From: an uncultured Collinsella sp.
GTDB taxonomy: Bacteria; Actinomycetota; Coriobacteriia; Coriobacteriales; Coriobacteriaceae
Direction: 5' to 3'
NCBI GenBank assembly: GCA_900541725.1
Contig: UQLB01000005.1
Location: 37,717 to 101,716 of the forward strand
DNA length: 64,000 nucleotides
Part shown: positions 6,638 through 19,420 of the stretch, one piece after another
Layout: every line of letters starts with the position of its first letter
Numbering within the stretch: the first letter of the stretch is position 1
Translations under genes and position numbers: made by a program
Notes under the pieces: model-generated
Databases searched by the model: none
Told to the model about the DNA's origin: nothing
What the model saw: the letters and a program-made list of their open reading frames with translations, nothing else

Positions 6638-6739
6638 TCCGTTCTAGATCGATTTCGGCACGAACCAGTATAGCGGTCGAGCCTGCCCCAGGCGCATCGA
6701 AGATTGGTGCATCGGGGACAGGTTGCTTTGCGCCAATGG

Positions 6740-7900
6740 TTAGCGCAGGAGCTCGGACTGCCAAGCCTCGAGCTGTTCTGCCAAACTCTTGCCGGCAGCG
6801 GGCACGTCGATCTGGGGTCGTTTGGGCAGCAGCGCACACTTAAGAATCGCAACGATGGTCTGCGAGACAAAGCGCCGCGTATCCTTGTCAAAGCCTTGCG
6901 CAGCCTGGAGCATCACGGGCAGGCTCTCGCGCAGATTCCCAGCGATATCCGCAAACCGTTCGGCGCCCGTAGCCTCAAACACGGAGAACAACGCATCTAC
7001 AAAACGCTCGCGCTCGCTAGGTGACACTGCAAGCAGCATCTCGCGAATGGAGCCATCAACGTATCGAGCACCGGCGGACAGGCGCTCACAGTACACGAAG
7101 TCGCAACCATCAACCACCCAGCTAAAGGGATTGTGCTGCAGCAGGCTGAACTCGGTGCTCTCAACGATGGCATAGTCCTCTTGTGTCTCGAACATCATGC
7201 CGAAGATCGACGACCGAGGTAGCGTCTTGTCGATTCGACCGGAAAAATCGGCAAAGGCGTTGCCGTTCAGGAACTCCTCGACGAAGCCCGGACCATCATG
7301 GGAATATGCCCGTTCGATTCGCTCACGGGCGACATCGGAGCACATCGCCGCACCGTACACCGCAAGGTTTCCACCCTTGGAATGACCTCCGCACAAAAGC
7401 GGCCCGTCGATCGCATCCGCCGCTTCGTCCACATAACGTGCCGCGGATTCCTGGGCCGGCACAGGGCACCGGAACGCCATGTTAAAGTCCTCTTTCCAGC
7501 CCACAATCGTGCTGTCGGTCCCCCGGAAGGAAAGATAACTAAACCCCGCCGGAAACCGGAACGCCATGGCTGCAAACTGCTCTGTCGCCACCACATCGCT
7601 CACGGCACGATAGCCGCAAACGTGCACGCCACGGTAGCGAGGGCTTGCCGCCACGGCCTCCAGCAAGGCCCTGCTCCCCTCTGGGTCCCATAGGTCGCCA
7701 ATCATGTCCCGGTAGCATTCGGCACGCAGCAGCTCTCGTACGTCTAGGCCCTGCCAGTTCGTCAGCTCCGCCATATCACCCGGCAAACGCAAATAGGACA
7801 ACCACGCAAAGACCAGGCTATCCACCGCGCAGAACGGCCGCTCCTCAAACGGATCAAACGCCGTCTGGGCATAGGTCAAAAAATTAGGCGAATCCGACAT
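6740..7900 (-). CDS. DUF2974/Mbeg1-like alpha/beta hydrolase (lipase-like)
   Basis: 386 aa. GGHSKGGNLAVYGA nucleophile-elbow motif (GHSxG). Confidence 0.6.
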   Translation of the reverse strand: MSDSPNFLTYAQTAFDPFEERPFCAVDSLVFAWLSYLRLPGDMAELTNWQGLDVRELLRAECYRDMIGDLWDPEGSRALLEAVAASPRYRGVHVCGYRAVSDVVATEQFAAMAFRFPAGFSYLSFRGTDSTIVGWKEDFNMAFRCPVPAQESAARYVDEAADAIDGPLLCGGHSKGGNLAVYGAAMCSDVARERIERAYSHDGPGFVEEFLNGNAFADFSGRIDKTLPRSSIFGMMFETQEDYAIVESTEFSLLQHNPFSWVVDGCDFVYCERLSAGARYVDGSIREMLLAVSPSERERFVDALFSVFEATGAERFADIAGNLRESLPVMLQAAQGFDKDTRRFVSQTIVAILKCALLPKRPQIDVPAAGKSLAEQLEAWQSELLR

Positions 7901-8014
7901 GGCCCTCCCATCAACTATAGTGCATTGGGGTCAGGTGACTTTGCACCAAAAAGGCGCCCGGGCCGCGTGGTCCCGAACGCCTTCATTGTAGCTTTTCGCT
8001 CTAGCGAGCTTGAT

Positions 8015-8965
8015 TTAGCAGGAGAAGTCGACGCTATCGATGATGTCCTTGAGGGCCTTGGCGGAGGCGGTGAGCTCATGCTGCTCGTCATCGTCCAGCG
8101 GCACGGGGACGCGGCAGACAACGCCGTCGCGGCCAACGACGGTCGGCATGGAGATGGCCAGATCGGACAGGCCATACTCGCCCACCATGAGCGAGGAGAC
8201 GGGCAGAACGGTCTGCTCATCGCGCATGACGGCGGTGCAGATGCGCTTGACGGCCATGGCGACGCCATAGTAGGTGGCGTGCTTCTTCTCGATGATGGTG
8301 TAGGCGGAGTTCTTGACGTCCTCGGCGATGCGCTTCTCGGCTGCCTCATGCTCCAGGTGGCCGTGAAGCTCACAGAAGGTGTTCAGCGGCACGCCGGCAA
8401 CCTGGGCGCTGGACCAAGCGACAAACTCGGAGTCGCCGTGCTCGCCCATGACGTAAGCCTGAACGTCGCGCGGGTCGACCTCGACGTGGGCGCCGAGCAT
8501 CTGCTGCAGACGGCCAGTGTCGAGCACGGTGCCGGAGCCGATGACGTGGCCCTCGGGCAGGCCGGACATCTTGATGGCGGCGTAGGTCAGAACGTCGACC
8601 GGGTTGGAGACGATGAGCAGAATGCCGTCGAAGCCAGACTTCTTAATCTCGGGAATAATGGACTTAAAGATGTTGACGTTCTTGTTGACCAGGTCCAGGC
8701 GGGTCTCACCGGGCTTCTGGGCAGCGCCAGCGGTGACGACGATCATGGCGGCGTCGGCGACATCGGAATAATCGCCGGCGTAGATCTTCATCGGCTCGGC
8801 AAACGTCATGCCGTGCGCGATATCCAAGGCCTCACCCTCGGCGCGGTTCTTGTCCACGTCGATGAGGACCATCTCGGAGAACAGGCCACTCTGCATCAGC
8901 GCGAACGCCGAAGACGAACCAACGAAACCGCAGCCGACAATAGCGACCTTCTTCTCGTTAACCAT
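8015..8965 (-). CDS. ldh: L-lactate dehydrogenase
   Basis: 316 aa. KVAIVGCGFVGSS Rossmann motif, and GEHGDS and catalytic-His regions typical of LDH. GGGAG SD. Confidence 0.95.
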   Translation of the reverse strand: MVNEKKVAIVGCGFVGSSSAFALMQSGLFSEMVLIDVDKNRAEGEALDIAHGMTFAEPMKIYAGDYSDVADAAMIVVTAGAAQKPGETRLDLVNKNVNIFKSIIPEIKKSGFDGILLIVSNPVDVLTYAAIKMSGLPEGHVIGSGTVLDTGRLQQMLGAHVEVDPRDVQAYVMGEHGDSEFVAWSSAQVAGVPLNTFCELHGHLEHEAAEKRIAEDVKNSAYTIIEKKHATYYGVAMAVKRICTAVMRDEQTVLPVSSLMVGEYGLSDLAISMPTVVGRDGVVCRVPVPLDDDEQHELTASAKALKDIIDSVDFSC

Positions 8966-9167
8966 TAGAAACTCCCATCTCTCTCCACAAACAAACCGCC
9001 CGAGAACGACCCCGAGCGGTTTGCCGTAACCCCAATATATCCAATCGGGACTTTGATTATGCTCCTATTCGCAGCCAAATATCGACCGTTTACCGAAATT
9101 GTTTGCAGGATTCGTAAAATAACTGCACGAAATCGGTTTCGAGCTATTGACGAGTCGAAATAGGTTT

Positions 9168-10331
9168 CTAATACAGGCCCGCCTCGCGAATGGCCTCGAC
9201 AGCCAAAGCGATCTGATCGGGCGGCAGGACCAGCGCCATGCGCACGTGCCCCTCGCCCGAAGGGCCAAAGCTCGCGCCCGGCGTCACCACAACGCCGGCC
9301 TTCTCCATAAGCTCCTCGCAAAACGCCATGGAATCGGTGCGATCACCGGGAAGCTTGGCCCACACAAACATGGAGCCATGCGCGTTGGGTCGCTCCCAGC
9401 CCAGGCCCTCAAGTCCGTCGCACAGGGCATCGCGGCGCTCCTGGTACTTCAGACGCTGTGCCTCGACCTCATCGCGTGGACCGTTCAGGCAGGCGATGGC
9501 GGCCTTCTGGATCGGGAAGAACATGCCAAAGTCGATCTGGCTGCGCAGCTTGGCAAAGGCAGAGACCACGTCCTCTCGGCCGACCAAAAAGCCGATGCGG
9601 GCACCGGTGACGTTAAACGACTTGGAGAGCGAGAAGAACTCAACGCCCACCTCGAGCGCGCCGGGATACTGCAAGAAGCTGCCGCCCGGCTCGCCGTCGA
9701 ACACGATGTCGGAGTATGCGTTGTCGTGAACGATCAGCAGGTCGTGCTCGCGGGCAAAAGCGATGATCTCCTCGTAGATCTCGGGCGTGCCCACCGAGCC
9801 CACCGGGTTGGCGGGCAGCGACACGATCATGTACTTGGCACGATCGGCCACCTCGGGATCGATGCCCGCCACATAGGGCAGGTAATTGTGCTCCGCCACC
9901 AGCGGATAATACTCGAGTTTGGCGTCGGCGATCTTGGCCCCCGCCTCAAAAACCGGGTAGCACGGATCGGGAACCAAAATGGTGTCACCCGGATCGAGCA
10001 GGGCCAGGCCCAAATGGCCCACGCCCTCCTGCGTGCCGTTGCACGACTGCACCATGGACGGCGTAATGCCCGAAACGCCAAAGCGACGCTCATAGTAATC
10101 GCACACAGCTTGCTTGAGTTCGGGCAGGTCGCGCAGGGCATACTTCCACATCTCGGGATCTTGGGCTGCCTGCGTGAGCGCCTCGACCACGTGGTCGTAC
10201 GGCTTAAAGTCGGGCGTGCCCACGCTCATGTTGTAAATGGTCTTGCCCTGAGCCTTCAGCGCAAGCAGTTTGTTGTTGAGCGAGGCGAAGACCTCCGCGC
10301 TAAAGCGGTCGAGACGCTGCGATGCCTGCAT
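9168..10331 (-). CDS. Class I/II PLP-dependent aminotransferase (LL-DAP/N-acyl-DAP aminotransferase-like)
   Basis: Start trimmed to the ATG at 10331 (MQASQRLDRF), which has AAAGGTGG SD 7 nt upstream. SLSKSFNVTGARIG motif with the PLP-binding Lys. Confidence 0.85.
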   Translation of the reverse strand: MQASQRLDRFSAEVFASLNNKLLALKAQGKTIYNMSVGTPDFKPYDHVVEALTQAAQDPEMWKYALRDLPELKQAVCDYYERRFGVSGITPSMVQSCNGTQEGVGHLGLALLDPGDTILVPDPCYPVFEAGAKIADAKLEYYPLVAEHNYLPYVAGIDPEVADRAKYMIVSLPANPVGSVGTPEIYEEIIAFAREHDLLIVHDNAYSDIVFDGEPGGSFLQYPGALEVGVEFFSLSKSFNVTGARIGFLVGREDVVSAFAKLRSQIDFGMFFPIQKAAIACLNGPRDEVEAQRLKYQERRDALCDGLEGLGWERPNAHGSMFVWAKLPGDRTDSMAFCEELMEKAGVVVTPGASFGPSGEGHVRMALVLPPDQIALAVEAIREAGLY

Positions 10332-10349
10332 GGTGCCACCTTTCGATAT

Positions 10350-10383
10350 GAAAAACGCGGCGCTCCGACAAGAGCGCCGCGCG
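10350..10383 (-). terminator. Rho-independent terminator downstream of nadE
   Basis: GCGCGGCGCTC-ttgtcg-GAGCGCCGCG hairpin followed by TTTTTCAT on the minus strand. Confidence 0.6.
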
Positions 10384-10449
10384 ATACGGGCCATCAGATT
10401 GCAAAAGTGTAACGCTTGCAACCCCCGTATTGGTTCAATTTAGCCAACC

Positions 10450-12450
10450 TTAGTCAATCGGATCGAGCGCATCGATCTGCGCAAGCCACAGACGTGAGCT
10501 GGCGTCACTCGGCATACGCCAATCGCCGCGCGGACTGAGCGTCACCGAGCCCACCTTGGGACCATCGGGCAGGCAGCTGCGCTTAAACTGCTGGGCAAAG
10601 AAGCGACGATAGAACGTACGCAACCACGTGTGGACGGTCTTGACGTCGTAGACGCCCTCGAAGCTCTTGAGCGCCATGCGGTAGATCTTGCCCGGCTCAA
10701 AGCCAAAACGCAGCAGGTAGTAGAGGAAGTAGTCGTGCAACTCGTACGGGCCCACCAAATCCTCGGTCTTCTGCGCAATCTCGCCGTCGCCCGTGGGCGG
10801 CAGAAGCTCGGGGGACACCGGCGTATCGAGGATATCGAGCAAGACCTCGGCAATGCGCCCGCCAAAGACATCGGCGGCATAGCGTACCAGATGGCGCACA
10901 AGCGTCTTGGGCACGCTCGCGTTGACGGCGTACATGCTCATGTGGTCGCCGTTATAGGTAGCCCAGCCGAGCGCCAGCTCCGACAGGTCGCCCGTGCCAA
11001 TGACAAAACCGCCAGCCTGGTTGGCCAGATCCATCAGAATCTGCGTACGCTCGCGCGCCTGGCTGTTCTCGTAGGTCACGTCCTGCACAGCTGGATCATG
11101 CTCAATGTCCTTGAAGTGCTGCTCCACAGCCGCGTGGATCGAAACCTCGCGGAAGCTCACACCCAGGTCGCGGGCGAGCGACTCGGCATTCGACTTGGTG
11201 CGATGCGTCGTGCCGAAGCCGGGCATGGACACGGCTGTGATACCAGTGCGCGGCAGCCCCAGTGCATCGAAGGCACGCACGGTCACAAGCAGCGCTAGCG
11301 TGGAGTCCAAGCCGCCCGAAAGGCCGATAACCGCAGCCTTGGTGCCCGTGTGGGCAAGGCGAGTCTTGAGGCCAGCAGTCTGCAGATTGAGAATAGTCTC
11401 GCAGCGCTCGGCCAGATCACCGTGGTCGGCCGGCACAAAAGGCGCGCGAGGGAAAACGCGGTCGATATCGCAGGCATCGCGCAGAACAGGCTCTTTGGCC
11501 AGCACGCCCTCAAAAGAGAACTCAACGGTCGTGGCCTCCGGCGCATCGTCCGCGCGCGTCCACGTCGTCGAGCGGCGGCGCTCGGCAACCAGGCGGTCAA
11601 GGTCAACGTCGGCGACGGCCATATCGCAGGTAAGCAGTTTGGTCGCAGCGAGTTTGGAGCCGTTTTCGTAGACGAGGTTCTCGCCCGCAAAGACCATGTC
11701 GGTTGTGGACTCGCCCTCACTCGCGTCCGCATAGGCATAGGCGCAGTACAGGCGCGCGCTCTGGTTAGAGATAAGGCTGCGGCGGTAATCTGCCTTACCG
11801 ATGATCTCATCGGAAGCGGAGGGGTTGAGAATCACCGTGGCACCGGCAAGCGCCATCTCGGTCGAAGACGGTGCCGGCACCCACAGGTCCTCGCAGACCT
11901 CAATACCGAGCACCAAATCCTCGGCGCCCTTATCGCAGCAGCGGTAGACAAGCCCCGAACCCAGCGGGACCGGACCCTGACCGGCAAATTCAAGCCAAAC
12001 AGGATCGGTAGGTGCCGGAGCAAACCAGCGGCGCTCGTAGAACTCGCCATAGTTGGGCAGATACTTCTTGGCCGTGAGGCCCAAAAGCTCGCCCGCGCAG
12101 CACACGGCGGCGCAGTTGTAGATATTCTCGGCAACTGCAACGGGAAGACCGATAGTAAAGACAATCGGCAGCTCACGAGTCTCATCGAGGATATGCACCA
12201 AAGCAGCCTCGCAGGCATGCAGTAATGTGCGGTTATGGAACAGATCGGCCGCGGTATAGCCGCACAAGTTGAGCTCGGGCAGTACCAGCGCGCGAACGCC
12301 GCGCTCAACAGCCGCGCGAACAGCCGCTAACGCAACCTCGGCATTGCCCTCGACATCGGCCACGCGAATCTGCGGCGACGCCGCCGCCACACGCAAAAAG
12401 CCATCGTTCTTATTAGCCGAAACGCAGCATTGCCTTGTTGATCTGGACAC
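10450..12450 (-). CDS. nadE: Glutamine-dependent NAD+ synthetase (nitrilase domain plus NAD synthetase domain)
   Basis: 666 aa. N-terminal CN-hydrolase domain (FLRVAAASPQIRVADVEGN...) and C-terminal SGGLDS PP-loop. GTG start at 12450 (GAAGGGG SD), so the start position is uncertain. Confidence 0.9.
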   Translation of the reverse strand: MSRSTRQCCVSANKNDGFLRVAAASPQIRVADVEGNAEVALAAVRAAVERGVRALVLPELNLCGYTAADLFHNRTLLHACEAALVHILDETRELPIVFTIGLPVAVAENIYNCAAVCCAGELLGLTAKKYLPNYGEFYERRWFAPAPTDPVWLEFAGQGPVPLGSGLVYRCCDKGAEDLVLGIEVCEDLWVPAPSSTEMALAGATVILNPSASDEIIGKADYRRSLISNQSARLYCAYAYADASEGESTTDMVFAGENLVYENGSKLAATKLLTCDMAVADVDLDRLVAERRRSTTWTRADDAPEATTVEFSFEGVLAKEPVLRDACDIDRVFPRAPFVPADHGDLAERCETILNLQTAGLKTRLAHTGTKAAVIGLSGGLDSTLALLVTVRAFDALGLPRTGITAVSMPGFGTTHRTKSNAESLARDLGVSFREVSIHAAVEQHFKDIEHDPAVQDVTYENSQARERTQILMDLANQAGGFVIGTGDLSELALGWATYNGDHMSMYAVNASVPKTLVRHLVRYAADVFGGRIAEVLLDILDTPVSPELLPPTGDGEIAQKTEDLVGPYELHDYFLYYLLRFGFEPGKIYRMALKSFEGVYDVKTVHTWLRTFYRRFFAQQFKRSCLPDGPKVGSVTLSPRGDWRMPSDASSRLWLAQIDALDPID

Positions 12451-12579
12451 TGGAGGCCCCTTCTACCCTGAGATTCAGTCTAACGGACGTTCACATATCT
12501 CTAACTAGCCAAAGCAACCTCCCAGTTTACTGAGAGGCCAACCTGTGCTAAAAGCATGTATTTCAAAAATATCTTTAAT

Positions 12580-12612
12580 TAAAAAAGGAGAAATCGATAA
12601 TCGACTTCTCCT
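12580..12612 (-). terminator. Rho-independent terminator closing the low-GC radical-SAM operon
   Basis: On the minus strand: GGAGAAGTCGAT-TA-ATCGATTTCTCC followed by TTTTTTAATT. Confidence 0.65.
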
Positions 12613-12638
12613 TTAAGCGAGGCGAGTAAATTCCGAAA

Positions 12639-12749
12639 CTAATGGCAGAATTTATCCATGTAGTCCTCAAAGTCGAACACTTCCACCACGACGCCCTCTT
12701 CCTGAAACTCTTTCAGTTGCTCCAAGAGATCTTTGTTAATAACGTCCAT
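12639..12749 (-). CDS. Unannotated 36-aa acidic peptide (MDVINKDLLEQLKEFQEEGVVVEVFDFEDYMDKFCH). Candidate precursor/substrate peptide of the adjacent radical SAM enzyme.
   Basis: Not in the ORF track (<60 aa). ATG at 12749 is preceded by AGAGGAGGTTTCTGC (strong SD). It lies 13 nt downstream of the radical SAM stop and upstream of the operon terminator, within the same low-GC block. Confidence 0.45.
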   Translation of the reverse strand: MDVINKDLLEQLKEFQEEGVVVEVFDFEDYMDKFCH

Positions 12750-12762
12750 GCAGAAACCTCCT

Positions 12763-15084
12763 CTATCTAATCAATTGTAGTATATCTGCTTTCATGCAAT
12801 TATCAACCAACTTGTTTAATTGCTCCTCGTTTGCCGATAGTCCCTCTTTTTTCAAAATGTCGCGCACCTCGTTCTTAGTAATCGGCTTTTCAAACAACGA
12901 AAGCAAAGCGAACGAAAAATCATTAACCGCACACATTCTATGGGTGGCACAACTCAGCAGTACTCTTAACCCCTCTTTTGAGCGTCCGACTTCTTTCACA
13001 AACGAACTTTTAACCAATTGAAAACCATTATCGTGCATTACATAATCGGCATCGATATTTGTATTCAGCAATCCATAATGCAACAGTTCTTCTATCGCCC
13101 TTGTCAGCTCGAGGTCGCCCTGATCAAGGATAAGAGAAATGCTACAATCGGCCTCCAATAAACGGGCCAACTTAAGGTATACCAACTGGGAAACAGCATA
13201 GACATGATGGTATTCAGAATTATAGAAGTAGGCAAATGGCTCAACGAGCACGACAGAGGTCTTGGAATCCAGCCAGATTCGATCAGCTGGATTTAGACTA
13301 GTTAGCCGTCGCTTTACTTTGGTCAAATGTCCCTTATACCTGACAGCGTGAATAGAATCTAGGATCCAGGTCACCTCTGAAATATGAAGCCGCTGGGGCA
13401 AGTCAATTGTGTCGCTACCGTTTATGACCTCTTGCATATAAAAATCAATATGATGCTCATCAGATAAGGATTTTGCTTCATTTAAAGTTAAACCAGTGCC
13501 TGAAACATAATCCACTTCGAGGCGCAAATCCTCATATTGGGACTTCGGCATTACAGAGACACCATACTTATCGGGATGATTCCAAACATCCGACCCCATA
13601 ACGAGACCAAAATTCGTAAATCCTCTCGTGGAATATGGAACACCACATACCTGTTTTGAATAATTCAAAACATTCTCTGTATAAGCTAAGGTGTTCAGAG
13701 CCTCTTCTTTAGTTTCGGTCGGAAAGCCAATCATAAAGAATAGATGAACAGGAATACCCGCATTGAGACAATCATGGATATTGCGATCAATCCAATCAAC
13801 TCTCGTGTTCTTCTTCATTAGATCAAGAACTCTTTGGTTGTATGACTCGAGGCCAAACTGAATCTGCCTACATCCACTTTGGTATATCTTGTTGAAAACG
13901 TCTGTACTTAGGGTTGGAGAGAACCTCGTTTCTCCATGCCAGAAAAACGTTTTTCCCGATGCGTTTATTTCATCCGCGAGTTGCTCCATTCTTTTGCCTT
14001 CGAATGTTTCATCCACAAAAGAGAAAACTCTCGTGCCGTATTTTTCATTTAACCGACACATTATTTCAAATACTCTCGATATAGGCATCTTTCGGTAACA
14101 ACCACCGGTAGCACCGGGAATGGTGCAGAAGGCGCAATGATTAAAACACTGCCTAGAGGAATAAACCGGCAATATTAACTCAGGCATGAAGTATTTAGAA
14201 AGGGCGAAGCCATCGAAATCGGGAACTGTATCGTTGATAAATGTTTGCTCAATCCGATGGTTTTTATATATCTTTCCACCTTTAGCATGGCAAAGGTTTG
14301 GAACACAGTCGAGATTGTCATCACCGGAGTCAAGAGCCTCAAGAAGACGTGCAAGCGGCTCTTCGCCGTCATACATCATTATCGAATCAATGTATTCAAA
14401 AAAGGGATGCCATTCTTTCATGCAGTCATCTGCTAAACGAGTAATGTAATTGCCGCCCAATGAGACGTGTTTAACAGATGGACATTCTTCTTTAATCAGT
14501 TTCGCTAACGTAACTGCAGAAATCAATTGGAAACAGCCGCTCACCGAAATCCCAATAAACTCAATTTTTTCCCTCTGAATACGCTTAAGAAAGGCAGTTT
14601 CATAGAAGGAAATAAACGGATTATGCAAGGTATCCGCAAGCGATTTCATTATTTCTGGTGTCGAATAATAATCATAGGGCAGATCTATGGAGTTGAACGT
14701 GTATTTAACTCCATATGAGACGTGATTTATGATATAGAGTGCATTTCTAAAAATGTTTTCAGCATATTGTCTTTCTTTTAGATTAAAGTATCTCTTCGAT
14801 CTGAAAATATCTTTTGCCTCGTCAACATTAAGTGCTGACTTTTGTATCAACTCGATTGTTAATTGAACATTCGAACTAAACGAATCCTTTGATTCCCGAT
14901 ACCTTTTACAGCACTCTTCGACATGTCTATAAGATAGGAGGTCATCGTAAAATTCCACGTTTAAGTCAACGATGTCAACTTTATATTGTTCAACCTCTTG
15001 AAGATATGACTTCAAAACAGGCAAGGCAAGATACGGCCCCACTGGACTCCATCCTGGGGGAAATACTAAAAGCGTTTTAGGCAT
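12763..15084 (-). CDS. B12-binding domain radical SAM protein (class B rSAM, COG1032-like) with an extended C-terminal domain
   Basis: 773 aa. N-terminal cobalamin-binding-like domain, then CFNHCAFC (CxxxCxxC) at about residue 310, and an approximately 300-aa C-terminal extension. About 38% GC. Confidence 0.85.
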   Translation of the reverse strand: MPKTLLVFPPGWSPVGPYLALPVLKSYLQEVEQYKVDIVDLNVEFYDDLLSYRHVEECCKRYRESKDSFSSNVQLTIELIQKSALNVDEAKDIFRSKRYFNLKERQYAENIFRNALYIINHVSYGVKYTFNSIDLPYDYYSTPEIMKSLADTLHNPFISFYETAFLKRIQREKIEFIGISVSGCFQLISAVTLAKLIKEECPSVKHVSLGGNYITRLADDCMKEWHPFFEYIDSIMMYDGEEPLARLLEALDSGDDNLDCVPNLCHAKGGKIYKNHRIEQTFINDTVPDFDGFALSKYFMPELILPVYSSRQCFNHCAFCTIPGATGGCYRKMPISRVFEIMCRLNEKYGTRVFSFVDETFEGKRMEQLADEINASGKTFFWHGETRFSPTLSTDVFNKIYQSGCRQIQFGLESYNQRVLDLMKKNTRVDWIDRNIHDCLNAGIPVHLFFMIGFPTETKEEALNTLAYTENVLNYSKQVCGVPYSTRGFTNFGLVMGSDVWNHPDKYGVSVMPKSQYEDLRLEVDYVSGTGLTLNEAKSLSDEHHIDFYMQEVINGSDTIDLPQRLHISEVTWILDSIHAVRYKGHLTKVKRRLTSLNPADRIWLDSKTSVVLVEPFAYFYNSEYHHVYAVSQLVYLKLARLLEADCSISLILDQGDLELTRAIEELLHYGLLNTNIDADYVMHDNGFQLVKSSFVKEVGRSKEGLRVLLSCATHRMCAVNDFSFALLSLFEKPITKNEVRDILKKEGLSANEEQLNKLVDNCMKADILQLIR

Positions 15085-15091
15085 ATCAACG

Positions 15092-16279
15092 TCACATCTT
15101 TCGCAAATAATTCAATTGAAACGCAGCTACCATCATAATTGAAAATACACCAAGTCCTGTAACGAGAATTGAGAACATCGCGGTGCTCGTGAACAGCGAA
15201 ACAAGGAGTGTTGAAATAACAACAGCAACCGATTGCAAAGACTCCCTAATTGAAAACAGGCTTATCGATTCAGATTCGTCTCTCGCCAAATCCTGCAGCG
15301 ATGTTATGAGAAGCACATCTTGAATGGCGTTTCCGGCACCGACGATAAAAAGGAAAATAAACGATATCCCAGACGCATAACGATAGCCAAACGCCAGATA
15401 CGCACCGAGCGCAAGATACGTCACAAAACAATATGATTTAACGCAATCGGAACCACTAATTAAACGACCATATATTGTATTTCCGAACAACAGTCCGATT
15501 GTAAGACTACTCTGAAGGAATCCATATTGTATCGATGACGAGTCAAATTGCAATTGCGCTATAGCTGGCAAAAGAGAATTCAGAGAGCCGAATGCCACGC
15601 CACTAGAAATATCGATTAATAGGAAACCAATTGCCAAGTGCTTCGCGCTAAGATCACTAAATGCAGTCCTGTTTTTTTCATTTTTGCTTATCCCCTCTTT
15701 ATCATTAACCTCGATAACCGACGGAACATCTCGCAGCAACCAGAACGACGCGGCAAAAGAAAGCGCGTCTAATGCAAGAACAGCCTCCGCCCCAAATTGA
15801 GCGACAACAAAACCGCCGGCAACTGGCCCCAGAACCATCATCAAATTCTGCAGAAACCCAAACGAATTATTAATTACGTCGCGATTGATACTATTCGTAT
15901 TGGCTCTTAACAACGAGTAAAAGCAGGGCATTTCAACCGTTCGGCAAAGCGATACCGCGCACGTAATAGCAAACATACTCCATTTACTATCAACAAAAAT
16001 ATAGCAAACGAATAATCCCGCGCGAATTAAGTCTGCCAATCTCATGGCCTGCAGTGTCCCGATACCCATCTTCTGAGGCAGCTGCGCGAGCGAAACTGAA
16101 AACAGAGAGGGGGCAAATCTGCAGCAGACCATCAAAGCAGTTGCAGAAACATCGTGAGTTACCTCGTAAATCAGCATTGGCAAAGCAATATTCGCACACC
16201 AATTGCCTATTTCGCTTATCCCTCTAGCAATATATAGGACCCGAACCGGATGGCTAGCTCTCAATACCGTGAACATCAC
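15092..16279 (-). CDS. MFS transporter (probable exporter)
   Basis: 395 aa with about 12 predicted hydrophobic segments. Stop lies 8 nt before the rSAM start. Low GC. Confidence 0.75.
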   Translation of the reverse strand: MMFTVLRASHPVRVLYIARGISEIGNWCANIALPMLIYEVTHDVSATALMVCCRFAPSLFSVSLAQLPQKMGIGTLQAMRLADLIRAGLFVCYIFVDSKWSMFAITCAVSLCRTVEMPCFYSLLRANTNSINRDVINNSFGFLQNLMMVLGPVAGGFVVAQFGAEAVLALDALSFAASFWLLRDVPSVIEVNDKEGISKNEKNRTAFSDLSAKHLAIGFLLIDISSGVAFGSLNSLLPAIAQLQFDSSSIQYGFLQSSLTIGLLFGNTIYGRLISGSDCVKSYCFVTYLALGAYLAFGYRYASGISFIFLFIVGAGNAIQDVLLITSLQDLARDESESISLFSIRESLQSVAVVISTLLVSLFTSTAMFSILVTGLGVFSIMMVAAFQLNYLRKM

Positions 16280-16535
16280 GATTAACCTCGTATTTCAGGC
16301 CTCGTTCATCCCTTAATAGGAATCCATAATCAACCAAGTACCGCCTCAACACGGCATAATCAGGATAGAGCTGTGACAGCACACGATTAACCTGAAGCTC
16401 CGTATAACTTGTATTTAATTCAAAGAAAGAGACGGCCCATAGCAGCATGATTCTTTTATAGCTTTCCTTTTTTGGAATTGAAACCAGCTCGCCATTCTTG
16501 AGAAATCGTTTTTTAAAGTCTATTAGCTCATCCAT
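16254..16535 (-). CDS. DUF2087-like small protein (regulator-associated domain)
   Basis: 93 aa. YTELQVNRVLSQLYPDYAVLRRYLVDYGFLLRDERG resembles DUF2087. GGAGGA SD. Overlaps the MFS start. Confidence 0.5.
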   Translation of the reverse strand: MDELIDFKKRFLKNGELVSIPKKESYKRIMLLWAVSFFELNTSYTELQVNRVLSQLYPDYAVLRRYLVDYGFLLRDERGLKYEVNRDVHGIES

Positions 16536-16614
16536 TCACATCCTCCATTTCATACGCATCTAATACTAAAAATGCATACGCTTTAGGTCATCGCATTCGG
16601 CTTCTTTATTCGAA

Positions 16615-16896
16615 CTAAACTCGAACTAATCTAAATGATTTGCTCAAACACTCTTCGAAAGCTCGTTTTTCACTCTGAGTAAAATGCCCTTCCCAGTCAG
16701 TCCACGAACAGGAAGGCAACTCACAGCGAGCGGAGTCGAAGCCCTCTGCCGTCGGTCGTTCAAAATGCACGACAACCTTTTCGATATCCTCATCTGCAAT
16801 CAGGTCAGAATGAACGACCTCGGTACCGTCTTCGAATGTCATATACGGGTACATCACGTAAACCACCTCGCAATCGTAAATCCAGTTTAGCATCAA
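16615..16896 (-). CDS. Hypothetical small protein (93 aa), first gene of the low-GC operon
   Basis: ORF with ATG-ATG start in the AT-rich block. No recognisable motif. Cys-containing CELPSCSW segment. Confidence 0.45.
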   Translation of the reverse strand: MMLNWIYDCEVVYVMYPYMTFEDGTEVVHSDLIADEDIEKVVVHFERPTAEGFDSARCELPSCSWTDWEGHFTQSEKRAFEECLSKSFRLVRV

Positions 16897-17029
16897 GCTA
16901 TTGCACCAAAGACAGCAAGCCCCCCTTGATGAGTTGATGGTATCTGCTAAATGTCACGTACGATTCACATCTGGTGGGTACCCTGATGGCTGAATGAAAC
17001 GAAGCAGATTTACGCCGGGAGGACCCCGT

Positions 17030-17974
17030 ATGACAACCAAGTACACCGACGCGCCGCGCACGCGCGTCATGACGCCGGCATCGCTCAACAACGGCGTGCA
17101 CGAGAACCATTCCATCGGACAGACCATGGCCATCGCGCCCAAAAAGGGCCTGTTCGATGACATTTCCATTCCCCAGATCATCGCCGGCGCCGCAGCTGCT
17201 GCCACGAGCGTCGCGCTTGCCTCCAAGATCGGTATCGCCGGATCGGTGATCGGCGCTGCCGTGAGCTCGGTCATCACCGTTGTGTCCTCGCAGGTCTACC
17301 GCCACTTTATCTCTGCGAGCGCCGAAGCAATCAAGGGCACGCATGCCGCTGTCGACTACCCTGCCGGCGCCTACGAGCCCGTTGAGCCCGATGTCGAGGA
17401 GCACCTAGGTGGCGCCGCGACCACGCAGGAAATGCGCCAGGTTGCGGGACGCGCGACCACAGCGCGCGTCGCCCCTAACAGCCTGCGCGCCAAGGCCGCG
17501 GCAGAGTGCAGTCAGACGCAAAAGAAGGTCATCGTCTTCTCGATCGCCATCGCCATTGTCGCGGTCATCGCCTGCGCCGGTGCCATCCTTATCACCACCG
17601 CCGGTGAGGGTCTGGGTGAGCGCCCCGAGCCAATCCTTTCGTCGCATACGACCGAGCACGACGCGGATAGCTCCGGTCAATCGCAAGGCCAGCAGGACGA
17701 CCCGCAGGGCACCTCCACATCCACCGACTCGTCCTCGAACACCCCCGATCAGTCGCAGGACACCGATTCCTCTGTGAACAACAGCGGTACGCAATCCGGC
17801 ACAACCGACTCAAGCCAAACGACTGACGGCTCTCAACCGAGCACGGGCGACCAGACGAGCGGCAATACATCGGGCACGGGATCTACCGACAACAGCAGCA
17901 CTAACAGCTCGGGCGGAACCGCGTCCGGCACGGCATCTGACAGCTCGAGCCAAGGCACGACGTCGGGCAACTAA
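17030..17974 (+). CDS. Membrane protein with one or two TM segments and a long Ser/Thr/Asp/Gly/Gln-rich low-complexity C-terminal tail
   Basis: ORF 16994..17974. Start placed at the ATG at 17030 (MTTKYTD) after GGGAGGA SD. Hydrophobic IVFSIAIAIVAVIACAGAILITTA segment. Confidence 0.6.
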   Translation: MTTKYTDAPRTRVMTPASLNNGVHENHSIGQTMAIAPKKGLFDDISIPQIIAGAAAAATSVALASKIGIAGSVIGAAVSSVITVVSSQVYRHFISASAEAIKGTHAAVDYPAGAYEPVEPDVEEHLGGAATTQEMRQVAGRATTARVAPNSLRAKAAAECSQTQKKVIVFSIAIAIVAVIACAGAILITTAGEGLGERPEPILSSHTTEHDADSSGQSQGQQDDPQGTSTSTDSSSNTPDQSQDTDSSVNNSGTQSGTTDSSQTTDGSQPSTGDQTSGNTSGTGSTDNSSTNSSGGTASGTASDSSSQGTTSGN

Positions 17975-18112
17975 GCGCGTTTGCCTCTCATAGATAACCG
18001 ACCTGCATAACGGGCGCGAACCGGCAACGGTCGCGCCCGTTTGCCTTGGGCGACGAGATGGCAAGCCCCGTGCGATGGTAAGATGCTTTGGTGTGTAAAG
18101 AGGAGATTTGCC

Positions 18113-19420
18113 ATGAGCAAGACAATAGTTAGGCCCACGCTTTCGCTGGGCAACCACATCTATCTGTATCGCCTGCTGCGCGATGCAATCGGATGCGGCA
18201 AGCAAACGTTTATGACGCAGGTCGAGGAGGCACTCGCCGCTGGTGACATGGCCGCTTATGACCTGGGCTTCGAGTCCACGCGCGAGCTGCTCGAGGAGCT
18301 CGACGACTGCATTAAGCTGACCGTCTTTAAGGGCGGTCGCCTGTATGCCACTGTCATCGCCAACGAGGCCTGGGATGCCGCCCTTGCCAAGGGCGAGGAC
18401 AAGCCCAAGGCAGCCAAGGGAGCCAAGCAGTCCTACAAAAAGAAAAAACGCGGCGAGAAGGACCTCAAGGCCGTGCGTCCCAAGCACGTTAAGCGTCCCG
18501 AGCCCGAGCCCGTGGCCGAAGTCGCTCCGGAGCCCGAGCCCGAGCCCGAGATCGAAGCCGCTATTGAGGTAACAGCAGAAGCCGAAACCGAAATCACTGC
18601 CACGACCGATCCCAAAGTCATATCCGAGCAGGAAGCCACTACGGAGCTCAACGAGGCTCCCAAGTCGACACCCGAAGAAGCCGCTAGCCAACCTGAGGCG
18701 CCTGCGCTCCAAAACAGCGATGTCTTTGGCGACGAGGCCGAGGACGATCAGCCCGAAGAGCCCGCAGAACAGGACGCTACCGAGGCGGCATCGGAGCCCG
18801 AGGCACCGCAGCCTGCCATCTCACTCACGGTCGTCTATGACCCCGAGAACGCCAACGCCGGCATCACCACCATGGCGTCCACGCCCATCGAGGCAAAGTC
18901 GAGCGTCGAGGACGAGAACGCGACGCAGGTTGAGGTTGAAACTGCAGCTGCAGACGCGCCCGCCACCGTGGAGCCCGCAGATTCCACGATCAAGCCGGAA
19001 GCGACGCCAGAGCCCGCACCCGTCATCAAATCCGTGCCCACCTCTGCTTGCGAACAAATTCCCGCACCGGCACCGGCTTCGGCACCCGCAGCGGCCCCAG
19101 CCCCCGCACCCGCAGCACCGACCATCCCCGAGGACTTCCCCGTCGATTTCGCAACCGAGGTCTTCTGCCCCGGCCCGCTTCTGCACCAGTTGTCGACCTA
19201 TCTCCCCTACGGCGCCGACACGCTCGGCATTGTCGGCGAGTACTACTGGATCGCCCGCGAGCGCGGTACCATCGAGGCCGCGCGAAACCGCGCAAGCTTC
19301 CCCCTGTGCTACACGCAGGCCGGCGAGCGCCGCGAGGTTACCGTGCGCATCCGCCGCAACACCACCGGCGGTCTCGGAGCCGCCTGGGGCATCGACAAGG
19401 TCGAAGCCCCGGTCGAGTAA
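18113..19420 (+). CDS. Hypothetical protein with a conserved N-terminal domain, a Pro/Glu-rich (PEPEPEPE) acidic linker and a conserved C-terminal domain
   Basis: ORF 18041..19420. Start at the ATG at 18113 (MSKTIVRPTLS) with AGGAGA SD. Confidence 0.6.
   Translation: MSKTIVRPTLSLGNHIYLYRLLRDAIGCGKQTFMTQVEEALAAGDMAAYDLGFESTRELLEELDDCIKLTVFKGGRLYATVIANEAWDAALAKGEDKPKAAKGAKQSYKKKKRGEKDLKAVRPKHVKRPEPEPVAEVAPEPEPEPEIEAAIEVTAEAETEITATTDPKVISEQEATTELNEAPKSTPEEAASQPEAPALQNSDVFGDEAEDDQPEEPAEQDATEAASEPEAPQPAISLTVVYDPENANAGITTMASTPIEAKSSVEDENATQVEVETAAADAPATVEPADSTIKPEATPEPAPVIKSVPTSACEQIPAPAPASAPAAAPAPAPAAPTIPEDFPVDFATEVFCPGPLLHQLSTYLPYGADTLGIVGEYYWIARERGTIEAARNRASFPLCYTQAGERREVTVRIRRNTTGGLGAAWGIDKVEAPVE

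Follow-up and report, generated by a model that had tools for sequence, protein, structure and literature searches.

A conserved 36-residue peptide gene beside a B12-type radical SAM enzyme gene in Collinsella, a probable precursor gene of a minimal RiPP cluster

Organization of the locus

The window analysed in this work is a 64,000-nucleotide stretch of DNA from Collinsella (aerofaciens group; contig UQLB01000005.1) that carries, on its minus strand, a 36-codon open reading frame (ORF) directly downstream of a gene for a radical S-adenosylmethionine (rSAM) enzyme. An earlier note, made from the nucleotide sequence alone, had described this ORF and regarded it as a plausible substrate of the enzyme; it is presented here as the probable precursor gene of a cluster of the RiPP type (peptides synthesized ribosomally and modified post-translationally). 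Translation reproduced its coordinates, 12639-12749 (-), with the ATG at 12749-12747 and the stop codon at 12641-12639, and no earlier in-frame start codon exists. The deduced product of 36 aa, MDVINKDLLEQLKEFQEEGVVVEVFDFEDYMDKFCH, contains 11 acidic residues and 3 Lys, has a net charge of -8 and ends in Cys-His. The acidic character noted earlier is borne out by this composition, while the Cys-His end is a trait of the Collinsella clade and not of the whole family.

Analysis of the surrounding region indicated that the peptide gene is the last of four genes on the minus strand. In the direction of transcription these encode a 93-aa DUF2087 protein (16254-16535; Pfam, synteny), presumed to be the cluster regulator, a major facilitator superfamily (MFS) transporter (15092-16279; MFS_1/MFS_3, EntS-like by Pfam, NCBIfam and synteny), presumed to be an exporter, the 773-aa rSAM enzyme (12763-15084; rSAM, B12-type and RRE domains) and the peptide, with inter-gene gaps of -26, 7 and 13 nt, the last counted from the rSAM stop codon to the peptide ATG. 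The Shine-Dalgarno (SD) sequence AGGAGG (12757-12762) follows directly on the rSAM stop codon TAG (12763-12765) and stands 7 nt before the ATG, one more than the spacer of 6 nt given before. Its description as strong is upheld, the arrangement AGGAGG-N5-9-ATG occurring only 5 times in the 64-kb window when both strands are counted.

An intrinsic terminator (12578-12614, minus strand) lies just past the peptide gene and consists of a 14-bp stem with a 3-nt loop (12584-12614) followed by T6; the folding energy of the hairpin is -18.3 kcal/mol (z = -2.1). The rho-independent terminator that had been proposed was accordingly recovered, and its reported distance of 27 nt holds when counted from the last sense codon, the peptide stop codon being 24 nt from the stem. 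The four genes would be co-transcribed, with the transcript ending at the terminator (12584-12614).

A sigma-70-like site, TTGATA-16-TATACT (12779-12806, minus strand; 10 of 12 matches), is situated 30 nt 5' of the peptide ATG, within the 3' end of the rSAM gene. Such sites were no commoner here than in shuffled sequence and an internal promoter is not claimed; if active, the site could raise transcription of the precursor gene, as does the internal start site of the bottromycin cluster, which boosts precursor transcription.

Conservation of the reading frame

Alignment of the ORF with its counterpart at locus L081, whose rSAM enzyme is 60% identical, revealed 22 differing codons, 11 of them synonymous and 11 non-synonymous. 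All of the non-synonymous changes fell within codons 2-22, together with 6 synonymous ones, while codons 23-36 showed 5 synonymous and 0 non-synonymous changes. The L081 ORF is equal in length and is preceded by the SD sequence GGAGGAG at the same place. The C-terminal 15 residues, IEVFDFEDYMDKFCH, were unchanged in P0150 and P0168, whose rSAM enzymes are 60-68% identical. The ORF was intact in 80 of 80 Collinsella species-representative genomes, which are the best-scoring of 301 matches (loci L001-L080), as well as in all metagenomic Collinsella contigs extending that far.

The pattern of substitution indicates that purifying selection acts on the peptide reading frame, most strongly over the last 14 codons, and the comparison of sequences identifies the 36-codon ORF as a conserved gene, a reading frame under selection and in all probability translated. 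The ORF is short, and 36 codons in DNA of 42% GC are not rare by length alone, so that a chance, untranslated ORF within the 3' untranslated region of the rSAM gene had to be considered. However, the excess of synonymous changes within those 14 codons, the strong SD sequence present both in Collinsella and in L081, and the retention of ORFs with the same motif in Actinomycetota, Bacillota, Fusobacteriota and Myxococcota (Chondromyces), in addition to the Collinsella host, all contradict this explanation. Its probability appears negligible, and the comparative data effectively refute it.

The peptide gene beside rSAM homologues

The earlier note had proposed a comparison of the neighbourhoods of rSAM homologues for conserved co-occurrence. 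Such co-occurrence was found: at most a few hundred bases 3' of the full-length rSAM homologue, a homologous small ORF was present in all 11 distinct contexts read, which cover full-length homologues from 60% down to 34-37% identity, and a gene with the same motif is present in two distant contexts. The small ORFs were mostly recovered by the family profile, those of loci L167 (E 0.94) and L169 (E 0.011) being assigned by position and motif.

Besides the peptides of L081 (MLPIDLEIIEKLKETCEEGVKIEVFDFEDYMDKFCH) and Hungatella L082 (MDKQLLEKLNELEEKEIVAESLENQDYVMKYSP), the deduced products end in ...ENEDYVVKYST (L122), ...LSKEILKQLQEEALTKEVTAEVFDTCSNSTQYV (Desulfosporosinus L083), ...NDAMNTTQYSP (Dorea L087), ...GSSLTTKYA (Fusobacterium nucleatum L086), ...DSEMNTKYC (Lactococcus lactis L085), ...ESEVNTKFV (Bacilli genome L168), ...EPNSTKYTSPE (L169) and ...SQSTTQYCLK (Paraclostridium plasmid L167). 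The two distant contexts are those of Streptomyces (L170), with a 49-aa gene directly upstream of the rSAM gene that contains NSKYA, ...NRVNSKYALLQEPGNS, and of Chondromyces (L171), where a 74-aa gene containing ...NQVMKKYTAAP... lies on the opposite strand, about 1 kb upstream; both homologues correspond to the enzyme over its N-terminal 70% only. All loci without a peptide gene either ended at a contig edge or held distant homologues of the N-terminal part only.

An MFS pump was found in 11 of the 13 contexts read, with none called in the Chondromyces flanks and the L122 context not annotated. A gene for the DUF2087 domain belongs to the clusters of Collinsella, L081, Hungatella, Desulfosporosinus and Streptomyces, while in those of Lactococcus and the Bacilli genome an Rgg regulator is located directly upstream in its place.

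Analysis of the peptide sequences showed that a [K/Q]-[Y/F] dipeptide is situated 1-4 residues from the C-terminus in 14 of 14 peptides encoded beside full-length homologues; in the peptides of Streptomyces and Chondromyces this distance is 9-12 residues. N-terminal to the motif stand an acidic leader, in which a helix resembles LLExLKE, and then an alternating hydrophobic stretch, namely GVVVEVFDF in Collinsella and EIVAESLEN, EVTAEVFDT and EIKFDVMAN in other members. The alignments, the motif table and the substitution pattern together describe a bipartite precursor, with leader and core, and a conserved motif. In the Collinsella peptide, residues 1-18 would form the acidic helical leader (LLEQLKE), residues 19-27 (GVVVEVFDF) a beta-prone segment and putative RRE-binding strand, and residues 28-36 (EDYMDKFCH) the core, in which the family motif is K33-F34.

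Several clusters carry further genes. At L169 the K-Y peptide gene is directly followed (6648-10448) by genes for a full-length LanB-type dehydratase and an MNIO (MbnB/TglH-like) enzyme, a hybrid cluster suggesting that modification of the K/Q-Y/F motif is combinable with Ser/Thr dehydration. The Streptomyces cluster (3745-10349 of L170) additionally encodes a 418-aa protein with weak JmjC/cupin-like similarity, a 234-aa protein and a methyltransferase-DUF2087 fusion. At locus L172 there are two more genes of the B12-rSAM type, and a precursor-like gene of 70 aa found there lacks the K-Y motif.

Domain structure of the maturase

The 773-aa enzyme, hereafter the maturase, consists of an N-terminal Rossmann/B12-type domain (about residues 1-290), an rSAM barrel (about residues 300-520), a linker and a tandem RiPP recognition element (RRE; about residues 586-773, 12766-13329). 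The rSAM core PF04055 was matched at 7.9e-18, and the motif C313-x3-C317-x2-C320 (14125-14148) is of the canonical CxxxCxxC type, with C313 and C320 invariant and C317 conserved in at least 90% of 16 homologues. The top NCBIfam matches were all to cobalamin-type (B12) rSAM families and all below cut-off. The best of them was TIGR03975, 'RiPP maturation radical SAM C-methyltransferase' (121.3 bits, E 4.2e-35, residues 6-519), whose cut-off of 281.85 bits is not reached, so that the maturase is related to TIGR03975 without being a member. An AlphaFold (AF2) model built from the 16 homologues (pLDDT 89, pTM 0.90) was compared with known structures by Foldseek, and the best PDB matches of the N-terminal 520 residues were the cobalamin-dependent rSAM enzymes OxsB, TsrM, MgmA, CysS and TokK.

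The C-terminal 198 residues, modelled alone (pLDDT 90), gave two winged-helix RRE modules, the last ~190 residues being arranged as two beta-beta-beta-alpha-alpha-alpha modules. Foldseek matched this part almost only to RRE domains of RiPP enzymes, among them ThcOx (double RRE, ~200 columns), TigE, TglI, MibB, PbtF-RRE, CteB and MccB, as well as TbiB1 and other lasso-peptide B1 proteins crystallised with leader peptides. At the sequence level the PqqD domain PF05402 was matched in one of the 16 homologues (7.5e-5). No SPASM Pfam domain was found in the 16 homologues, and past residue 405 Cys was absent from the columns that are invariant or nearly so, both in the 16-sequence alignment and in the alignment of residues 576-773. 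Judging from the models, the maturase carries its own leader-binding module in the form of the tandem RRE, which independently points to a ribosomal peptide as its substrate.

The low-GC island and its distribution in Collinsella

The whole cluster is carried by an island of 4.5 kb (12450-16950) with 41-46% GC, as against about 59-62% around it and about 60% in the genome as a whole, located between nadE and a gene for a Ser/Thr-rich membrane protein. One insertion site is shared by all 80 Collinsella genomes. Across these genomes the identity to the window was 99.4% for the rSAM gene, 98.9% for the MFS gene and 99.6% for the DUF2087 gene, while that of the flanks (10800-12400 and 17000-19000) was about 92% on the left (nadE) and about 89% on the right; the choice of the best of 301 matches biases the island identity upward and leaves the contrast with the flanks unaffected. 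The presence of a near-identical low-GC island at one site between diverged flanks suggests that the cluster was acquired horizontally by Collinsella, recently and from a low-GC donor, and was spread by homologous recombination. Neither flanking direct repeats nor a tRNA-type attachment site was evident around the island. An Rfam scan of 11.5-18.5 kb returned nothing, so that no cobalamin riboswitch was detected in this interval.

The rSAM gene was disrupted in 9 of the 80 genomes, by nonsense mutations at eight loci (L039, L047, L052, L057, L061, L068, L069 and L078) and by a frameshift at L074. Among the nonsense mutants are three cultured isolates, and strains D6t1_180914_F6, AF14-35 and AM15-2 belong to these mutants. 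The independent nonsense mutations affect seven codons, K348, G384, W225, Q186, C320, C59 and Q280 (the last twice), that at C320 (TGC to TGA) removing a cluster ligand, and the number of codons indicates that the enzyme has been lost repeatedly in some lineages. The peptide gene was intact in all nine disrupted genomes.

This retention and the highly acidic, helical-looking make-up of the peptide speak in favour of a role other than that of a substrate, in which a small protein with a regulatory, chaperone or immunity function would act on the enzyme, the pump or the DUF2087 regulator. However, in an island so young (~99.4% identity), target size alone leads one to expect that a 111-nt gene stays intact while its 2.3-kb neighbour is mutated. 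Moreover, the enzyme has tandem RREs, whose known role is the binding of precursor leaders, and constraint peaks on a short C-terminal motif beside a variable tail, a pattern usual for core peptides and not for folded proteins. A non-substrate role is considered very improbable, and nothing was found that specifically supports either the regulatory or the carrier peptide that the earlier note had offered as alternatives.

Public databases hold many truncated rSAM products (628, 537, 394 and 272 aa), and products of 1053 aa that also match MFS Pfam domains are apparently MFS-rSAM fusions. At the upstream edge of the island a second ORF of 93 aa (16615-16896, minus strand), with a probable start at the internal MYPYMTFEDG..., had no Pfam or NCBIfam match and was dissimilar to the 82-aa ORF at the same position in L081; its membership in the cluster is uncertain. 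Just beyond the island, the plus strand (16994-17974) encodes a 326-aa protein with a low-complexity C-terminal half rich in Ser, Thr, Gly and Asp and with no Pfam match.

Proposed role of the peptide and mechanism

Synteny, the tandem RRE of the enzyme and the pattern of leader and core conservation support the precursor reading of the earlier note. The 36-aa ORF very probably encodes the precursor (substrate) peptide of the adjacent B12-type rSAM maturase, and the locus is best read as a minimal RiPP cluster made up of a DUF2087 regulator, an MFS exporter, a B12-type rSAM enzyme with a fused tandem RRE and the precursor. The N-terminal two thirds of the peptide would serve as the leader, with the acidic LLExLKE helix as one part and the alternating hydrophobic stretch GVVVEVFDF as the other, and this stretch is predicted to dock as an extra strand on the C-terminal RRE of the maturase and to bring the core EDYMDKFCH into the rSAM active site. 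There the 5'-deoxyadenosyl radical, probably together with cobalamin, would modify the conserved K/Q-Y/F dipeptide. The product would then be exported by the MFS pump, with or without removal of the leader by a protease encoded outside the cluster, and may act as an antimicrobial or a signal. The leader may be trimmed by a housekeeping protease, or the product may be a small C-terminal fragment in the style of PQQ (pyrroloquinoline quinone) or mycofactocin. The DUF2087 protein probably regulates the cluster, as may the Rgg-type protein in lactococci.

A rival reading makes the peptide a scaffold from which a small molecule is cut, as happens with PQQ, mycofactocin and the pearlins; the rSAM enzyme would modify the K/Q-Y/F residues and housekeeping peptidases would free a modified amino acid or a di- or tripeptide, which the EntS-like pump would export. 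MftA and PqqA have their conserved motif close to the C-terminus, and the motif of the present peptides likewise stands 1-4 residues from it throughout the full-length family. The residues past the motif vary freely (SP, AN, AT, ST, CH, C, V, A), the transporter is a small-molecule exporter of the MFS_3/EntS type and not a peptidase-ABC exporter, and a leader peptidase gene is absent from the cluster. On the other hand, the maturase has no SPASM domain, unlike PqqE and MftC, and within clades conservation extends to about 8 residues ahead of the motif, suggesting that the product is larger. MFS pumps are furthermore present in the clusters of peptide RiPPs, namely bottromycin, clavusporin and biphenomycin (PMC7113386, PMC10849626, PMC12257519). 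The scaffold explanation was judged improbable.

Several observations weigh against the precursor reading. The match of the Collinsella maturase to PF02310 (B12-binding) scored 20 bits against a cut-off of 32.1; among the 16 homologues this domain was matched in eight at E < 1, with the Streptomyces homologue above the cut-off (41.5 bits). AprD4, a structural neighbour, has the same domain and does not use cobalamin in that way. No protease gene lies within the cluster. Searches with the peptide profile yielded no added members, so that the family is defined by synteny and not by peptide homology alone. In 8 of the 80 Collinsella genomes the rSAM gene has a nonsense mutation beside an intact peptide gene, so that the peptide would be left unprocessed in some strains. 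The exchange of F for Y and of Q for K does not single out one reaction, and translation, leader binding and modification are all deduced from comparison and models.

With regard to the chemistry, this same exchange makes a reaction that needs the phenol OH or the epsilon-amine unlikely. By analogy with related enzymes, C-methylation of an unactivated carbon (+14 Da) is tentatively put forward as the likeliest reaction at K/Q-Y/F. A cross-link (C-C, -2 Da) or another transformation comes next, by the same kind of analogy, and is rather unlikely. More speculative still is an unprecedented class B rSAM reaction on the motif, either an intramolecular C-C bond between a side chain and the aryl group of adjacent residues or a rearrangement giving a small exported metabolite, whose product would confer a fitness advantage in the gut large enough to have driven the near-clonal spread of the island across many Collinsella species.

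Family searches and significance

The peptide, which the earlier note had taken to be unannotated, was found to be already present in public records as a hypothetical protein (CUN48868.1, 'Uncharacterised protein [Collinsella aerofaciens]'); gene callers placed the exact peptide on over 1000 contigs, and 222 members make up its 90% cluster. For the rSAM enzyme about 270 homologues are detectable, and about 12,800 member sequences fall into its 90% cluster. Searches of the peptide against Pfam and NCBIfam gave nothing meaningful, the sole match being a chance one of 13.7 bits to an ArsD-related model. A word-indexed search with the peptide profile returned just close variants of the input peptides, and a HMMER scan of 1.84 billion representatives (E <= 0.001) revealed no further members beyond the inputs and their close variants, its two extra matches being long repetitive proteins.

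A profile scan of genome contigs with the rSAM alignment recovered Collinsella loci only and served the population data, not the diversity of the family. The metagenome scan, re-ranked on the Dorea homologue, gave mostly Collinsella, with L122 as the sole addition, and a tblastn search against plasmids found only distant rSAM enzymes of 22-28% identity. Neither the enzyme nor the precursor belongs to a curated family. Literature searches, including searches for the literal core sequences, found no description of the enzyme or peptide family, which rSAM surveys in subscription journals may list bioinformatically. This is a family for which no characterised member was found in the literature searched, and its clusters would operate in the same way as RiPP clusters built around a class B rSAM maturase.

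Collinsella aerofaciens is among the most abundant Actinomycetota of the human gut. The cluster is common in this species, and Lactococcus lactis, Fusobacterium nucleatum, Dorea, Hungatella and Streptomyces have members of the family as well. With one enzyme, one putative 36-aa substrate and one pump it is an easy target for heterologous reconstitution, which could reveal what a B12-rSAM enzyme with a fused tandem RRE does to the K/Q-Y/F motif. The ~99.4% identity of the island against 89-92% in the flanks suggests a recent sweep across species, which would make the island a natural case for the study of selection on a secreted gut peptide.

Comparison with known systems

The closest likeness is to the class B rSAM C-methyltransferases of RiPP pathways, represented by TIGR03975, the bottromycin enzymes and the clavusporin enzyme MpcB, with which the Collinsella maturase shares the rSAM barrel and, by its fold, an N-terminal Rossmann domain of putative B12 type, as well as, probably, a short ribosomal precursor. 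The TIGR03975 family includes the PoyC-type enzymes. The fold of the maturase likewise matches TsrM, TokK and CysS. Class B enzymes C-methylate unactivated carbons in polytheonamides, bottromycins and clavusporins (PMC10849626), and the clusters of bottromycin and clavusporin contain an MFS exporter (PMC7113386, PMC10849626), as that of Collinsella presumably does. In contrast to these systems, the Collinsella maturase has a fused C-terminal tandem RRE and not an NHLP/Nif11 leader system or a DUF5825 partner, and it is the single enzyme of a cluster whose precursor bears a C-terminal K/Q-Y/F motif, methylation being proposed only by analogy. MpcB carries a CX7CX2C motif, unlike the canonical CxxxCxxC of the Collinsella maturase, and neither the DUF5825 gene nor the S9 peptidase gene of clavusporin-type clusters (PMC10849626) was found in the Collinsella island.

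In the bottromycin cluster a DUF2087 protein also stands alongside B12-rSAM enzymes and an MFS transporter, and this protein, BtmL, specifically modulates expression of the precursor gene (PMC7113386). However, BtmL and the Desulfosporosinus homologue have an N-terminal ArsR-like winged helix-turn-helix domain that the 93-aa DUF2087 protein of Collinsella lacks, and the Collinsella cluster is without the YcaO, P450, amidohydrolase and other bottromycin genes.

PbsB, from the pathway of biphenomycin-type RiPPs, demonstrates that class B rSAM enzymes can form aryl-aryl C-C cross-links instead of methylating (PMC12257519). It is a B12-rSAM enzyme that acts on aromatic residues of a short conserved motif (F/Y-x-F/Y), as is proposed for the present maturase, and its cluster likewise has an MFS pump. 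It differs in that an MNIO enzyme with an RRE partner must first carry out ortho-hydroxylation, the RRE being on a separate protein (PMC12257519), while in the K/Q-Y/F family a single aromatic residue is conserved throughout.

The RaS-RiPPs of streptococci under Rgg/SHP quorum-sensing control (streptide, tryglysin, TQQ, RRR and NxxC; PMC9389541) resemble the present family in that a precursor is combined with a transporter and a single rSAM enzyme. In Lactococcus and the Bacilli genome the clusters of this family directly follow an Rgg gene, and the logic of naming by motif is the same. The enzymes of those systems, however, are of the SPASM/twitch type with auxiliary Fe-S clusters, whereas the present maturase is B12-type and SPASM-free, and in this respect the Collinsella enzyme stands apart from RaS-RiPP maturases in general (streptide-like enzymes, sactisynthases, PqqE and MftC). 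In the Collinsella island a DUF2087 gene is found instead of an Rgg gene; shp was not searched for.

In the PQQ (PqqA/PqqE/PqqD) and mycofactocin (MftA/MftC/MftB) systems a very short acidic peptide with a Tyr motif at or near its C-terminus is recognised by means of a PqqD-type RRE and modified by an rSAM enzyme. The Collinsella cluster has in common with them the short acidic peptide with its near-C-terminal motif and the RRE fold matched in the maturase, while PqqE and MftC are SPASM enzymes and the other pqq and mft genes are absent. The presence of a presumed exporter in the Collinsella cluster suggests that its product is secreted and is not a cofactor as in PQQ and mycofactocin.

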